A DNA stretch of 59,463 bases, from the IMG/VR virus record IMGVR_UViG_3300042330_000238, positions 1-59,463 of that record; one strand, written 5' to 3'. The notes under the pieces were generated by a model, which was not told the origin of the DNA, ran no database searches, and saw only the letters and a program-made list of their open reading frames with translations. Every line of letters begins with the position of its first letter. Within the stretch, counting starts at the first letter, position 1. This document shows positions 1 through 14,489 of the stretch, piece by piece. The stretch is from a virus. Lineage: Duplodnaviria > Caudoviricetes. A program made the translations under genes and the position numbers.

Positions 1-312
1 AGATTTTACAATCTTGGGCTTATACACAGCTTAGCTATTACTATTTCCTTCTTCTCTATGATCGTATAGATACAATCCTCATATAACCCTCAGAAGGTAG
101 GTTAGTGAATTTAGAGGACATTAAGACCACTCGTACTAATACGAAATTGAATTGCCCCTATTCATCCATTTCATTTGAACTTAATCAAAAGCGTCTTATT
201 TAATTCACAAATAATAATCAGATTACCTACTGATTTCCCCTTACAGACAGTCTTGGCTTGTCATTAAACTACCAACAATGTACATTGTTTTGACTTAGGG
301 AGTACTGATATT
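1..312 (-). ncRNA. Putative large structured RNA (3' part runs off the window)
   Basis: No ORF of 60 aa or more; higher GC than the flanks; back-to-back hairpins on the minus strand (AAUCAG/CUGAUU, UCGUA/UACGA, UCCUC/GAGGA, UCUAU/AUAGA, AGAUU-GUAA-AAUCU with a GNRA loop). Confidence 0.5.
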
Positions 313-315
313 AAA

Positions 316-514
316 AAACTACTTATCCATTTCTAAGTGGAATATTTCTCCTAGGATACCTCTATATCCGACTGTATTATTACAACAGCATCTGTTAATT
401 CAGATTATAGTAATCTATCTTACAATAAACAACATCATCTTAGCATGATTATTTCTCTCCTAACTACAAGTATACTTGCACTGCCAGAAACTATCTATCT
501 TCAGTAAGTAGTTT
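316..514 (-). ncRNA. Unassigned structured RNA motif, copy 1
   Basis: 10-bp closing stem 316-325/505-514; junctions CUGAAG and UGUAA shared with the copy at 525-718; G-U pairs favour the minus strand. Confidence 0.7.
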
Positions 515-524
515 AACTTTTAAA

Positions 525-718
525 AAATCACTTGTCCATATCTAGTAGAAATAGTATATCAGTCATTGTACATTTCAGATAAATGATGCCGAACTATTCT
601 TTACAATAAACACAACTGCTAGTACAGTTTATAATATTAGGAATCGAACCTAAATCTCTATCCATGAGAGTTATCCAGTGACGGACATTATTATTGTTTA
701 TCTTCAAGCAAGTGATTT
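525..718 (-). ncRNA. Unassigned structured RNA motif, copy 2 (with tRNA-like insert)
   Basis: 10-bp closing stem 525-534/709-718; same architecture as 316-514 with compensatory changes. Confidence 0.7.
631..694 (-). tRNA. Non-canonical tRNA-like cloverleaf (pseudo-tRNA; UGG at the anticodon-like position)
   Basis: Canonical T-arm UUAGG-UUCGAUU-CCUAA; 6-bp acceptor-like stem; D-like arm; 7-nt loop CAUGGAU; lacks U33 and CCA. Confidence 0.4.
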
Positions 719-723
719 AATTT

Positions 724-1386
724 TTAATTTCTTATTTCAAATAATATTTTATCTGATATAAATTTCATTCCTTTATCGTTTGGATGTGAAGCAATACCAC
801 TATTTTGATATTCTCCCCAAGCATAATTGGTCGGATCAGATTTCATTTCTAAAAGATCTACTAATATACATTTGTTTTCAATTGAGACTTCTCTTATTAT
901 TTTATCTTTTATTGATATGACTTCATAAGGATTTCCACTAGAATCAAATTGATATTGTGACCAAACTGTTGTTACTAATATAATATTATTACCATATTTT
1001 TTATAATAGTTTACAAGTTTTTTTAATGCATCTTTAAAATTACAAACATCACTTACGTTTTCACCAACTTTAATTACAACATAATCATATTGTAAAGATG
1101 TTGTAATTCCATAATGTTCTACACCAACATTAAAATTGTTTTCCCAAACAGCAATGTTTTTTCTATTTAATACATCAGTTTGTAGTTCTGTTTTTAATAG
1201 ACTACAAAAATCTTTATCAGGTGATGATGCAGCCATTCCCCAGTTACCTAACCATTCTCCACCAGGAGCACATTGTGTAATTGAATTACCAATTACTAAT
1301 ACTTTTGGAGGTGTATTATCAACCTCATCTTTTGAACAGCTTGTTAAACTTAATAACATTACTGATAACAATAATAATTTTTTCAT
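724..1386 (-). CDS. SGNH/GDSL-family esterase lipoprotein
   Basis: Lipobox LTSC after a hydrophobic signal; block I VLVIGNSIT, GEN, and C-terminal SHPNDKGM. Confidence 0.85.
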   Translation of the reverse strand: MKKLLLLSVMLLSLTSCSKDEVDNTPPKVLVIGNSITQCAPGGEWLGNWGMAASSPDKDFCSLLKTELQTDVLNRKNIAVWENNFNVGVEHYGITTSLQYDYVVIKVGENVSDVCNFKDALKKLVNYYKKYGNNIILVTTVWSQYQFDSSGNPYEVISIKDKIIREVSIENKCILVDLLEMKSDPTNYAWGEYQNSGIASHPNDKGMKFISDKILFEIRN

Positions 1387-1412
1387 TTTAATAATTTTAA
1401 TGATTAATAGTT

Positions 1413-1733
1413 TTATATTGTAAAATACTTAGCACCTCTATCTTCACAAAGGTCTCTAAATAATTGTACAACTGATTCTAAATGTAATCTCTTACCTCTA
1501 CTATCAAAGAATACTTCTTTGTTAATTGGTATTGTTTGAGACCATGTTTGTACTTTTTCTTCAGATTCTGAAGTTACAGGAACATTTTTAATATCACCTT
1601 TATAGTCTCTAAATGTTACTTTGTTTTCAAAATGAAATGTAATAACACCATTGTTTTCTTGGAATACTTCTTTTAACTTAGCAAATAATCCATTTTCTTT
1701 TTTCACTAATATTGGTTTAGCTTTTGTACTCAT
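1413..1733 (-). CDS. Hypothetical protein
   Basis: 106-aa ORF co-oriented with neighbours. Confidence 0.7.
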   Translation of the reverse strand: MSTKAKPILVKKENGLFAKLKEVFQENNGVITFHFENKVTFRDYKGDIKNVPVTSESEEKVQTWSQTIPINKEVFFDSRGKRLHLESVVQLFRDLCEDRGAKYFTI

Positions 1734-2783: not shown

Positions 2784-3110
2784 TTAATCATTGGATAATG
2801 AATTAAATATTTTCATACCAATATGTTTAGATTCAACTTTTCTCATCTTTGTAGGAATACTCCATACTTTAGATTTATCATCAAATCTGAAATCATTTAA
2901 TACAAAATTCCAATAGATATTAAATAGATATGTCATATATGGTTGTGTTAAATAACCATTTTTATTATATCTATTTTTTAATCTACAGAATTCATCTTGT
3001 TGAACCAATCTAAGATGTTGAAATATCTCTTGTTGTTCAATAGCTTTGATCATTGATGTTATTTTAACACCTGAATAACCTTGTCTTTGTAATGTTGTTG
3101 ACTTTTTCAT
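2784..3110 (-). CDS. Hypothetical protein
   Basis: 108-aa ORF. Confidence 0.7.
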   Translation of the reverse strand: MKKSTTLQRQGYSGVKITSMIKAIEQQEIFQHLRLVQQDEFCRLKNRYNKNGYLTQPYMTYLFNIYWNFVLNDFRFDDKSKVWSIPTKMRKVESKHIGMKIFNSLSND

Positions 3111-3142
3111 AATATTTTAGTTAATTTATAATTAAATATATT

Positions 3143-3406
3143 TTATATATTTATTTTATTGTTCCAATTGATCACTAAAAACGGTACTGTTATAATAACA
3201 ATATATACTATTGATATAACATAAAGTATTGTAAGTATTGTTTTATATGCAGGATTATCATCAGGATTTAAAAATAATAATCCTATTAATTTTTTTTGTT
3301 TACAAAATCCATCACCAATTTGATTTCTTTTTTTAATAATATCTAACACTGTTAAAAGAATAATAAAACCAATTACAAAAATTGTAAATAATGTTGATAC
3401 TAACAT
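3143..3406 (-). CDS. Small membrane protein (2 TM)
   Basis: Two long hydrophobic segments. Confidence 0.65.
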   Translation of the reverse strand: MLVSTLFTIFVIGFIILLTVLDIIKKRNQIGDGFCKQKKLIGLLFLNPDDNPAYKTILTILYVISIVYIVIITVPFLVINWNNKINI

Positions 3407-12808: not shown

Positions 12809-13036
12809 ATGAAATTTATAGAAGAAGGATATGATATATATAGAGGAAGACTTAAAGATCCATCCTTAAAAAAATTAAATTGGTATGAGGAAAATATTGT
12901 AAAACATCTTCCAACTACTGATGATTTTATTTTAAAAATAAAAATAGGAGATGAACATCTTATTGACATTTTAAAAGAAAAAAATGATTTGGAGTATTTA
13001 AATAATGAAAATGTACATGGAAGAAATATATTATAA
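12809..13036 (+). CDS. Hypothetical protein
   Basis: 75-aa ORF filling the operon gap. Confidence 0.55.
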   Translation: MKFIEEGYDIYRGRLKDPSLKKLNWYEENIVKHLPTTDDFILKIKIGDEHLIDILKEKNDLEYLNNENVHGRNIL

Positions 13037-14489
13037 TAAAGAAGGAAGAGAAAAGTTAATTAGTGGTGTAAATAAATTACATGATGCAGTAGCTTCTACT
13101 ATGGGTCCTAATGGTAGAACTGTAGTAATACCAGATGAAGATAGTTATGGTAAATATAAAGTTACTAAAGATGGTGTTTCTGTAGCAAGACAAGTTAAAT
13201 TAAAAGATCCTGTTGAAAATATAGGAGCTCAATTAATTAAACAGGCTGCTGAGAAGACTGTTGAAGAAGCTGGTGATGGAACAACAACTGCAACTGTATT
13301 AGCCACAACGTTTGTAAATAATCTTAAAGATTTTGAATATGTAGAAGTTGTTAAAGCATTTGATGATATAATTCCTAAAGTATTAGTAGAATTAAAAAAT
13401 AATTCAAGAGAATTAAAAAAAGAAGATATTAAACATGTTGCTAGTATTTCAGCTAATAATGATGAAGTAATTGGTAATATTATTCAAGACTCTTATAATC
13501 ATTCTGACATTATTAAAATTGAACAATCTAATAATATTACAGATGTTATAGAATTAATTGAAGGAATGAATTTAAATGTAAGTTATTTTTCAAAACATTT
13601 TATAAATAATGAAAAGAAAGGTACTTGTGAATTAGATAACCCTTATGTATTACTTTTAGATGGAAAACTAGAAAAGTTAGAAAATTTTAGAATTCCATTA
13701 GAAAAAGGTATGGATCAAGGTAGTTCATTATTAATTATAACAGAACACGTACATGAGCAATCATTACGTAAATTGGAATCAATTGTTCTTAGTAACAATG
13801 TTAATTTATGTATTATTAAAACACCTGGTTTTGGTCCACATAGAAAAGACTTAATTAGAGATTTATCTGATTTTACAGGTGCTACTGTAATTAGTGATAT
13901 GACTAAAGAATATAATGATAAAGTATTAGGAAAACTTAAATCTGCAAGTATTAGTAAGAACTCATCTATATTAGTTAAAGATGAAAGCATTGAATTAGAA
14001 GATTTAATTATAACCTTAAAAGAATATTCTAAATCAACAGAATTAACAGACTACGATAAAGAACTATTAAAACAACGTATTGATAATTTAACAGGTAAAG
14101 TATCTATTATTAAAATAGGTGGTAAAACTGAAAATGAAATGAAAGAACGTTATGATAGATATGATGATGCTGTTAAAGCTGTAGCTTGTGCATTAGAAGA
14201 AGGAATTGTACAAGGTGGTGGTATAGCGTTATATAATACTACGATTAATCTTTGTAATTCAAATTTTGGAGAAATTGTAGATGGAATATTTAATGCTTTA
14301 GATAAACCTTCTAATATTATAATGGATACTCGAAATTTTAATTATCAAGAAAAAAATATGTTTGATGAAAATATTATAGATCCACTTAAAGTTACAAGAA
14401 CAGCTTTAGAAAACGCAGTTTCAGTAGCTAAAACAATACTTAGTACTGATGCTATTGTATTAAATGAAATAGAATGGAACAAGAATTAA
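13005..14489 (+). CDS. groEL: Chaperonin GroEL (phage-encoded)
   Basis: TMGPNGR, VTKDGVSVA, AGDGTTTATVLA, KTPGFG, EEGIVQGGG, IIDPLKVTR. Confidence 0.95.
   Translation: MKMYMEEIYYNKEGREKLISGVNKLHDAVASTMGPNGRTVVIPDEDSYGKYKVTKDGVSVARQVKLKDPVENIGAQLIKQAAEKTVEEAGDGTTTATVLATTFVNNLKDFEYVEVVKAFDDIIPKVLVELKNNSRELKKEDIKHVASISANNDEVIGNIIQDSYNHSDIIKIEQSNNITDVIELIEGMNLNVSYFSKHFINNEKKGTCELDNPYVLLLDGKLEKLENFRIPLEKGMDQGSSLLIITEHVHEQSLRKLESIVLSNNVNLCIIKTPGFGPHRKDLIRDLSDFTGATVISDMTKEYNDKVLGKLKSASISKNSSILVKDESIELEDLIITLKEYSKSTELTDYDKELLKQRIDNLTGKVSIIKIGGKTENEMKERYDRYDDAVKAVACALEEGIVQGGGIALYNTTINLCNSNFGEIVDGIFNALDKPSNIIMDTRNFNYQEKNMFDENIIDPLKVTRTALENAVSVAKTILSTDAIVLNEIEWNKN

Follow-up and report, generated by a model that had tools for sequence, protein, structure and literature searches.

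An uncatalogued family of compact structured RNAs, found as a tandem pair in a crAss-like phage and among the tRNA genes of other phages

Two adjacent elements of about 200 nucleotides (nt) close to one end of a phage contig raise the question of whether they encode a folded RNA and, if so, what such an RNA might do. The contig, called the window here at its full length, is the 59,463-base pair (bp) IMG/VR virus record IMGVR_UViG_3300042330_000238 (Caudoviricetes; contig completeness rated 59%), and the elements occupy positions 316 to 718 on its minus strand. A first-pass annotation had described them as two copies of one RNA motif with covarying helices, invariant junctions, a compensated loop-loop (kissing) contact and swappable inserts, belonging to no family that it could name. 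Judged by sequence comparison, the two elements are paralogous copies of one structured RNA family. Our preferred reading, to which we assign a probability of roughly one half, is that the family consists of stable, trans-acting RNAs excised by the enzymes that mature transfer RNAs (tRNAs), with a compact functional core and a kissing contact made in cis.

All of the sequence features quoted in the first-pass annotation are present on the minus strand in both copies, and the complementarity of the two loop pairs (UACUAG/CUAG in copy 2, GCUAAG/CUUAG in copy 1) was confirmed. The fold is a four-way junction of helices P1, P2, P3 and P4 in which P2 branches into P2a and P2b; RNAalifold predicts P1, P2, P2a, P2b and P4. 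The P3 closing stem lies beside P4 in the copies that we read by eye, pairing in P3 was judged visually alone, and P3 interiors cannot be aligned between members. There were no open reading frames (ORFs) of at least 40 amino acids (aa) overlapping window positions 1-723. The parts of the two copies are as follows; the anchored set mentioned in the list is the independently anchored set described below.

525..718, minus strand: copy 2, type A, whole element, 194 nt, from the P1 5' strand to the P1 3' strand (coordinates by script)
709..718, minus strand: copy 2 P1 5' strand, AAAUCACUUG, pairing with CAAGUGAUUU at 525-534
702..708, minus strand: copy 2 junction J1/2, CUUGAAG, with the UGAA that is near-invariant in the anchored set
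695..701, minus strand: copy 2 P2 5' strand, AUAAACA, pairing with UGUUUAU at 606-612
630..694, minus strand: copy 2 variable arm P2a, closing stem AUAAUA/UAUUAU, tRNA-like interior
about 637-653, minus strand: copy 2 T-arm hairpin inside P2a, UUAGGUUCGAUUCCUAA, from the T-arm scan
614..629, minus strand: copy 2 hairpin P2b, AACUG-UACUAG-CAGUU, whose loop CUAG (619-622) pairs with the P4 loop
601..605, minus strand: copy 2 junction J2/3, UGUAA, then AG, with the GUAAG that is near-invariant in the anchored set
550..600, minus strand: copy 2 variable arm P3, closing stem AAUAGU/ACUAUU read by eye
535..549, minus strand: copy 2 hairpin P4, UCUA-CUAGAUA-UGGA, whose loop CUAG (542-545) pairs with the P2b loop
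515..524, minus strand: spacer between the copies, 10 nt
316..514, minus strand: copy 1, type B, whole element, 199 nt
505-514, minus strand: copy 1 P1 5' strand, AAACUACUUA, pairing with UAAGUAGUUU at 316-325
499-504, minus strand: copy 1 junction J1/2, CUGAAG
425..498, minus strand: copy 1 P2 domain, comprising P2, P2a and P2b
492-498 and 425-431, minus strand: copy 1 P2, AUAGAUA/UGUUUAU, including two G-U pairs
450-491, minus strand: copy 1 arm P2a, within the P2 domain
434-449, minus strand: copy 1 hairpin P2b, AUCAU-GCUAAG-AUGAU
420-424, minus strand: copy 1 junction J2/3, UGUAA
342-419, minus strand: copy 1 variable arm P3
326..341, minus strand: copy 1 hairpin P4, UCCA-CUUAGAAA-UGGA, whose loop CUUAG (333-337) pairs with CUAAG of the P2b loop (439-443)

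The G-U pairs in P2 of copy 1 identify the minus strand as the transcribed one. Single-sequence folding energies were only mildly below those of shuffled sequences (z = -2.47 and -1.69); because these scores are weak, support for the fold comes from comparison between sequences and not from energy.

To find sequences for that comparison, we searched IMG/VR with a pattern of two motifs common to both window copies, which returned 109 stretches. Membership was decided by a script that required the closing P1 helix and the 3' hairpin. Thirty-two stretches were members; the other 77, many from a coding repeat, lacked these features and were rejected. Because this pattern forces both motifs, we searched IMG/VR a second time, independently, anchoring on nothing but the 16-nt P4 hairpin of copy 1; of the 45 stretches obtained, 39 had not been met by the first pattern. 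Twenty-three of the new anchor loci were given to R1, a covariance model of the P2 domain (32 sequences, 101 positions), which matched 22 of them at an expectation value (E) ≤ 0.01; the remaining locus, L284, is truncated by its end. Three further anchor stretches were identical in sequence to loci already counted, and in thirteen, which were not given to R1, the family core was not seen upstream of the anchor. The P4 16-mer by itself therefore retrieved 22 further members. R1 recovered all members in its search set and matched family loci only (35 matches in 325 kb and 25 matches in 234 kb of phage DNA); beyond members and extra copies it found nothing in either set at E ≤ 1. The P2 domain of copy 2 (599-708) scored 78.1 bits (E = 2e-11) and that of copy 1 (418-505) 60.4 bits (E = 3.5e-8). 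The family now comprises 54 IMG/VR phage stretches besides the window, Cellulophaga phage phi14:2 and one Flavobacteriaceae genome, with a member length of 140-272 nt. The searches were seeded with patterns, and so capture the breadth of the family and its degree of conservation only in part.

The view that the family had no name agrees with a scan of the whole window against Rfam 15 (4227 models), which gave no match at gathering thresholds. With E allowed up to 10, window positions 1-1000 gave only chance-level matches to DLEU2_5, tRNA (16.1 bits) and IRES_APC.

Twenty-seven full-length members were aligned with MAFFT and a consensus structure was derived with RNAalifold; the pair counts cover the RNAalifold helices and the loop-loop helix. 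Partner positions were paired in 92.1% of cells, as against 33.6-45.5% when partners were slid by 1-3 columns, and 26 of 36 pairs had changed on both sides. None of 500 shuffles was as high as any observed pairing measure. Changes on both sides were found at all nine counted pairs of P1 (10 bp, with 97.1% of cells paired), all six pairs of the P2a closing stem, all five pairs of P2b, and three of five pairs of the kissing helix (alignment columns 107-111/251-255). P2 was invariant in this alignment because the search pattern had fixed it. A set of 27 P2 domains gathered through the independent anchor was aligned to R1 and so leans towards the model (alignment A6); in it 93.8% of cells were paired, as against 34.5-50.4% when slid, with changes on both sides at 17 of 19 pairs and at 6 of 8 in P2. 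The covariation proposed in the first-pass annotation was borne out in P1, P2a, P2b, P4 and the kissing helix among the 27 full-length members, and in P2 in the anchored set. The kissing helix exists in at least seven to eight versions, among them GCUAAG/CUUAG, GCCAAG/CUUGG, UACUAG/CUAG, UAUCAG/CUGA, UUCAG/CUGAA, GUUAG/CUAAC, CAGG/CCUG and UAUCA/UGAUA. A G-U pair stands at the base of P2 in 27/27 members, which fixes the functional strand.

These data bear on whether the conserved entity is RNA at all. A DNA-level feature, such as a miniature inverted-repeat mobile element with P1 as its terminal repeats or a recombination or packaging site, could have a 10-bp terminal inverted repeat like P1, whose sequence is invariant in most type A copies. 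It might also account for the shuffling of arms between copies and for the position of the window copy near a contig end. We consider this exceedingly improbable. Against it stand the compensatory changes in five helices, a covarying pseudoknot that a DNA function leaves unexplained, the G-U pair conserved on one strand only (P2 base, 27/27), the restriction to one or two copies per genome, and the placement of the element on the strand of 73 of the 75 neighboring tRNA or transfer-messenger RNA (tmRNA) genes.

The junction strands are near-invariant in the 27 independently anchored members, as the first-pass annotation had supposed from two. In J1/2 the bases are U (27/27), G (23/27), A (26/27) and A (27/27), and in J2/3 they are G (26/27), U (27/27), A (27/27), A (25/27) and G (23/27). 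The GAA of the first strand faces the GUA of the second and could extend P2 through non-canonical G-A, A-U and A-G pairs.

Near-invariant junction bases amid variable helices, together with a loop-loop contact, are typical of small ribozymes, and the first-pass annotation had offered "ribozyme, processing element or scaffold" as possible functions. The general part of that proposal, a functional folded RNA, holds. A self-cleaving or otherwise catalytic RNA, either a new ribozyme class or a hammerhead-like variant, could help to process the tRNA-array transcript; the CUGAAGA of copy 1 fits the hammerhead CUGANGA box, and the order of P1, box, P2 and purine-rich strand is one that we take to resemble type I hammerhead topology. 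The defining features of a hammerhead are a GAAA strand after stem II, a three-helix junction and a cleavage site before stem I. Despite the box in copy 1, a hammerhead was excluded: the corresponding sequence of copy 2, CUUGAAGA, breaks the box, as do type A boxes in general, and the GAAA strand and the three-helix junction failed as well. In the anchored set the equivalent of hammerhead G5 is A in 4/27 members and that of G8 is U or A in 4/27, the second strand reads GUAAG with U at its second position in 27/27, and four helices meet at the junction. Models for hammerhead, twister, twister-sister, pistol, hatchet and HDV ribozymes gave no match in window 1-1000 even at E up to 10, and flanking tRNAs already supply RNase P and RNase Z sites. 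A catalytic role of any kind seems improbable.

Members fall into two types. Type A has CUUGAAG, a UACUAG-type loop and often an invariant P1 (AAAUCACUUG), and the exact P1 sequence of copy 2 recurs in many type A members. Type B has CUGAAG, a GCUAAG loop and a covarying P1. Each type has its closest relatives in other phages and not in its window neighbor, so the pair is not a recent duplication. Copy number was one or two per genome, and a single R1 match was the rule in complete genomes (13 of 14 records in one set). Besides the window, two copies were seen in L296, which has the same A-then-B tandem with a 10-nt spacer; in L021, where a type A copy is followed by a more divergent one; and in L116, where the copies lie 0.9 kb apart. 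The kissing sequences differ between the two copies in all four of these genomes.

This difference is an observation in favor of the main rival to our reading, in which the loops pair between molecules to give rings, filaments or cages, with A and B forming separate assemblies: in 4/4 two-copy genomes, the loop codes of co-resident copies are never cross-compatible. There are precedents. The ROOL and GOLLD RNAs, found near tRNA islands, form homo-oligomeric cages (in the available portion of PMC12286853), RNAs under 200 nt, including manA, form 8- to 60-mers (per the available portion of bioRxiv 10.64898/2026.07.01.735769), and the packaging RNA (pRNA) of phage phi29 multimerizes through loop-loop kissing (per the accessible part of PMC4201828). 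On the other side is the geometry of a single molecule. P2 extends about 8 bp from the junction, P2b has 5 bp and the P4 stem 4 bp, and these lengths would put the P2b and P4 loops at about the same height from the junction. The linker from P2b to the P2 3' strand is 1-3 nt, at least as long as the 1 nt from P2a. The rule for three-way junctions was applied to these linkers in placing the P2b loop near the P4 loop. Helix lengths and junction linkers would thus let both loops meet within one molecule. The palindrome CUAG, present in both type A loops, does not separate cis from trans models, and the orthogonal codes may reflect old paralogy only. We regard self-assembly as unlikely, and as the alternative to be taken most seriously.

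The arms P2a and P3 behave quite differently from the core. Both can be wholly different between members of identical core. L013 and L018 have P3 in common (97% identity over 98% of the arm) and unrelated P2a, whereas P2a and not P3 is shared by L084 and L093 (86.5%) and by L279 and L288 (94.7%). P2a and P3 are thus exchanged independently, and the swappable inserts of the first-pass annotation correspond to this exchange. Some arms contain tRNA-type T-arm hairpins: we found them in 7 of 51 members, including copy 2 of the window, when 0.15 were expected from shuffles and the maximum was 2. The T-arm hairpin in P2a explains the weak match of copy 2 to the Rfam tRNA model (629-695; 16.1 bits, gathering score 29).

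T-arm modules suggest another role: the RNA could partner Ro60 (TROVE domain) in the manner of a Y RNA, or attract tRNA-binding enzymes by resembling tRNA. Mimicry of tRNA is a feature of bacterial and phage Y RNAs (as the available text of PMC4201824 has it), the element has a closing stem formed by its 5' and 3' ends, it can occur in tandem, the T-arm-like hairpins exceed the shuffled expectation, and three family-bearing phages have TROVE ORFs above the Pfam cut-off. Nevertheless, such a role is very unlikely. TROVE occurs in only 3 of 50 records (2 of 19 with a completeness rating of 90% or more) and lies 7-9 kb away, not adjacent, and 44 of 51 members have no T-arm. Y RNAs are 80-130 nt long with a large internal loop (same portion of PMC4201824), as against 140-270 nt and a four-way junction here, and no Rfam Y RNA model matched window 1-1000 at E up to 10. 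The Y RNA/YrlA family, as a candidate identity for the element, fails on Ro60 adjacency, size and architecture. The three records concerned are represented by G005:58846-59064, G016:84075-84296 and G029:90756-91517; their Ro60-like ORFs are of 545-566 aa, and TROVE is absent from the window contig.

Which phages carry the family, and where in their genomes? The window phage is crAss-like: its major capsid protein shares 64.6% identity with its counterpart in Cellulophaga phage phi14:2 and has weaker matches in gut Crassvirales; the first-pass guess of a Crassvirales or Flavobacteriia phage was right. Of 32 family-bearing records, 12 have a homologue of this capsid protein, as do 9 of the 13 rated at least 90% complete, so the family reaches beyond crAss-like phages. 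The records include one classed as a provirus and contigs larger than 300 kb, and the public runs that contain window DNA are lake-water metagenomes.

A blastn search of GenBank phages with window 1-1400 and two members as queries gave no match, and phi14:2 was found by the covariance model only. Its R1 match (NC_021806, 1295-1396; 35.9 bits, E = 3.4e-4) belongs to an element that by eye spans approximately 1283-1573, with its own P1 and the kissing pair UAUCA/UGAUA. The gap in which it lies is unannotated, two small ORF calls there having been dropped in 2020. R1 had no match below E = 0.5 in Flavobacterium phage Fpv1, Bacteroides phage DAC17, IAS virus and PhiCrAssBcn24. Among GTDB genomes, the script recognized no member in the at least 120 matches listed for the first pattern, and two tighter patterns gave six stretches with one genuine member, in Joostella sp. 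CR20 (Flavobacteriaceae). This member (L302:540-740, NZ_JAESVF010000002.1), the sole one found in a bacterial assembly, is of type A with its own covarying P1. It sits beside small ORFs that match phage (PHROG) families, and the locus is probably a prophage or phage-derived region.

We analyzed the genomic context of 49 of the 54 loci (two duplicates were dropped and three loci of the second set were absent) by running ARAGORN on the fetched flanks. There was a tRNA or tmRNA gene in the fetched flank at 21/49 loci, and 73 of 75 such nearby genes were on the same strand as the element. The nearest was within 200 nt at 11/49 loci, and a tRNA was within 10 nt at 6/49. Where members sit between tRNA genes the spacers are 0-8 nt, and in L259 and L280 there are tRNAs on both sides at 0-6 nt. 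Several loci, and phi14:2, have tmRNA genes near the element. One two-copy locus also has an unusual tRNA-like gene (L021:4330-4512, minus strand), inside a 22-tRNA array: its 5' part (acceptor and D arm) and 3' part (T arm and acceptor) look normal, an insert of about 100 nt splits them, and ARAGORN does not call it.

The spacing bears on a cis-acting role, as a riboswitch-like sensor, an attenuator, or a structure that stabilizes or terminates the transcript of neighboring genes. The four-way junction, its conserved bases and the long-range contact between loops are reminiscent of riboswitch aptamers, which are known to occur in tandem, and many members have a U run after P1. Spacers of 0-8 nt between tRNA genes, however, leave no room for an expression platform or a controlled ORF; neighboring genes are not conserved (the best protein cluster covers 11 of 50 loci), and there was no terminator-like site in window 1-1600. 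Control of adjacent genes is a long shot in our estimation. A promoter scan gave 17 sites against 11.2 expected and is uninformative, since its sigma-70 consensus may be unsuited to these hosts. Antisense targets of the arms within the window genome were limited to matches of 14-15 nt at E of 0.08-3, which is chance level.

The product of the gene directly upstream of the RNA pair (window 724-1386, minus strand) is a GDSL-like lipase/acylhydrolase whose N-terminus looks like a signal or lipoprotein sequence. At 30 bits it falls just short of the Pfam cut-off of 32.9, and a peptide-pattern search of IMG/VR found no relatives. Elsewhere in the window, a GroEL-like chaperonin (13005-14489; PHROG 5725, E = 5e-117) lies directly upstream of the large terminase.

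We compared contigs from four freshwater metatranscriptome runs with window 1-1500. Two of the runs gave contigs of 163-233 nt with matches to the type A core (599-637) and to the end formed by P4 and the 3' strand of P1 (519-550). Between and outside these parts their sequence departs from that of the window, so they come from relatives that carry other arms. Family members thus do occur in RNA libraries, where DNA carry-over is possible. No RNA contig covered copy 1, the arms of copy 2 or the coding region 724-1500, which is uninformative given that the contigs belong to relatives.

Window 34-309, just downstream of the pair, is likewise conserved and non-coding. Positions 41-262 are covered by contigs from four freshwater metatranscriptome runs at 95-99% identity; one contig reaches 309, and in one contig six other letters replace 113-208, pointing to a variable middle. 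Relatives occur in three IMG/VR contigs (L304-L306; 87.5-93% identity). The stretch has no Rfam match, and no family member was found beside its relatives in L304-L306.

In phi14:2, two intergenic regions of unassigned function are reported from RNA sequencing to be highly and stably transcribed (available text of bioRxiv 10.1101/2020.03.07.982082). [quoted passage not shown] The other, a further uncatalogued RNA, the "g004-g005" intergenic RNA (L248; NC_021806, about 3018-3400), which the same available text gives as highly and stably transcribed, is conserved, with homologues at L051:5334-5579, L018:10306-10435, L013:5423-5459, L116:7484-7608 and L306:985-1066. It adjoins members of the present family in several phages and has no Rfam match at E ≤ 0.1.

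Taken together, we favor the following model. Each element would give rise, in the window from the minus strand, to a stable non-coding RNA of 140-270 nt that acts in trans. The RNA would fold as a cloverleaf-like four-way junction in which P2b folds back so that its loop makes a helix of 4-6 bp with the P4 loop, and this kissing helix, formed within one molecule, would lock the fold. In tRNA arrays, cutting of the precursor by RNase P at 5' ends and by RNase Z or exonucleases at 3' ends could free the RNA. Its functional face would consist of the UGAA and GUAAG junction strands, the P2 helix and the kissing helix, and the likeliest use of this core is to bind some conserved factor, from host or phage, in tRNA or translation metabolism. 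The arms P2a and P3 would be tolerated as exchangeable expansions. Types A and B, of which the window holds a copy apiece, are old paralogues, and their kissing sequences are mutually orthogonal. Of all this, the fold, the family, the strand and the genomic context are established, and the processing route, the kiss in cis and the action in trans are inferred.

Several points weigh against this model. No tRNA or tmRNA gene was found in the fetched flank at 28 of 49 loci. ARAGORN found no tRNA gene in the window itself, yet the pair is 315 nt from the end of an incomplete contig. A conserved neighbor protein, which might have indicated a partner, is found in 11 of 50 loci at best, and this cluster looks like synteny among related phages. 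We infer the intramolecular kiss from geometry, and a purely structural role does not account for the strictly invariant P1 sequence of most type A members. The contigs from RNA libraries are sequences of relatives that give neither ends, strand nor level, and they could come from DNA carry-over. Finally, the published text on phi14:2, in the part available, singles out two regions other than that of the family member (bioRxiv 10.1101/2020.03.07.982082).

A more speculative reading, which we think rather doubtful, treats the RNA as a modular chassis, that is, a kissing-locked and nuclease-resistant core released from tRNA transcripts. Either its exchangeable arms, some of them T-arm mimics, would act as decoys that bait host tRNA-directed defense nucleases or tRNA-binding enzymes, or the core would self-assemble into type-specific multimers. 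If true, the family would represent a functional class new among phage RNAs, and phi14:2 on Cellulophaga baltica would serve as its cultured model.

Under our preferred model of a processed, trans-acting RNA as well, the family is of interest for several reasons. Well-supported classes of RNA with a complex fold and a covarying tertiary contact are rare, and GOLLD, ROOL and manA, from phage tRNA islands, were recently shown to form unexpected RNA-only assemblies. The present family adds a compact member of 140-270 nt, with more than 50 natural variants, two co-resident paralogous types, orthogonal loop codes and swappable arms. Because phi14:2 is a cultured and transcriptomically studied crAss-like phage that has a member, expression, processing, oligomeric state, partners and the effect of a knockout can be tested. 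The results also flag aquatic crAss-like phages as carrying an island of several uncatalogued RNAs beside tRNA and tmRNA genes.

How does the family compare with known RNAs? A description of it was not found in the literature; it may sit unnamed in the catalogue of 10,006 candidate phage RNAs of Fremin et al. (PMC10690425, taken without its supplements). GOLLD and ROOL are likewise phage-encoded, often beside tRNA islands, pseudoknotted and without an assigned function. GOLLD sometimes has tRNAs in a variable linker (according to the available part of PMC12286853), much as the arms of the present family sometimes have T-arm hairpins. They are, however, about 580 to over 800 nt long, compared with 140-270 nt, and their phage and host range differs from the aquatic Bacteroidota phages of the present family. 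As candidate identities they were set aside: there was no Rfam match, members are 140-272 nt long, and the tRNA-island context alone is in common.

The small stable RNAs C and D of phage T4 (RNAC and RNAD, or species 1 and 2) belong to its tRNA cluster, are matured together with the tRNAs and are about 120-140 nt long. They resemble the present family in context, namely a same-strand position in a tRNA array at tRNA-like spacing, which was found for members within 10 nt of a tRNA (6/49) and not in the window. We know of no four-way junction with a loop-loop helix in either of them.

phi29 pRNA is similar in size; its 5' and 3' ends pair to close it, and it has a multi-helix junction and two complementary, covarying loops (available part of PMC4201828). 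On the packaging motor of phi29-like phages these loops pair one molecule with another, whereas the present family occurs in tRNA arrays of crAss-like and other large phages, and the Rfam pRNA model did not match. manA, another structured RNA of about 200 nt from aquatic phages, forms cages (available portion of bioRxiv 10.64898/2026.07.01.735769) and is found in cyanophages and gamma-proteobacteria (per the accessible text of PMC2864571), not in crAss-like phages; its model RF01745 gave no match in window 1-1000 at E up to 10.

A likeness in plan is also seen with the tRNA cloverleaf itself, with its four helices, a closing helix of the 5' and 3' ends, a contact between the loops of the second and fourth arms (compare the D-loop and T-loop) and a location among tRNAs. 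Unlike tRNA, the family has junction strands of 5-7 nt and no conserved anticodon arm, CCA or discriminator pattern. A tRNA identity was rejected, with no ARAGORN call in the window and an RF00005 score of 16.1 bits against a gathering score of 29, for P2a of copy 2 only. Set beside these systems, we rate the elements as a new family within a known and poorly understood kind, the orphan RNAs of phage tRNA islands.

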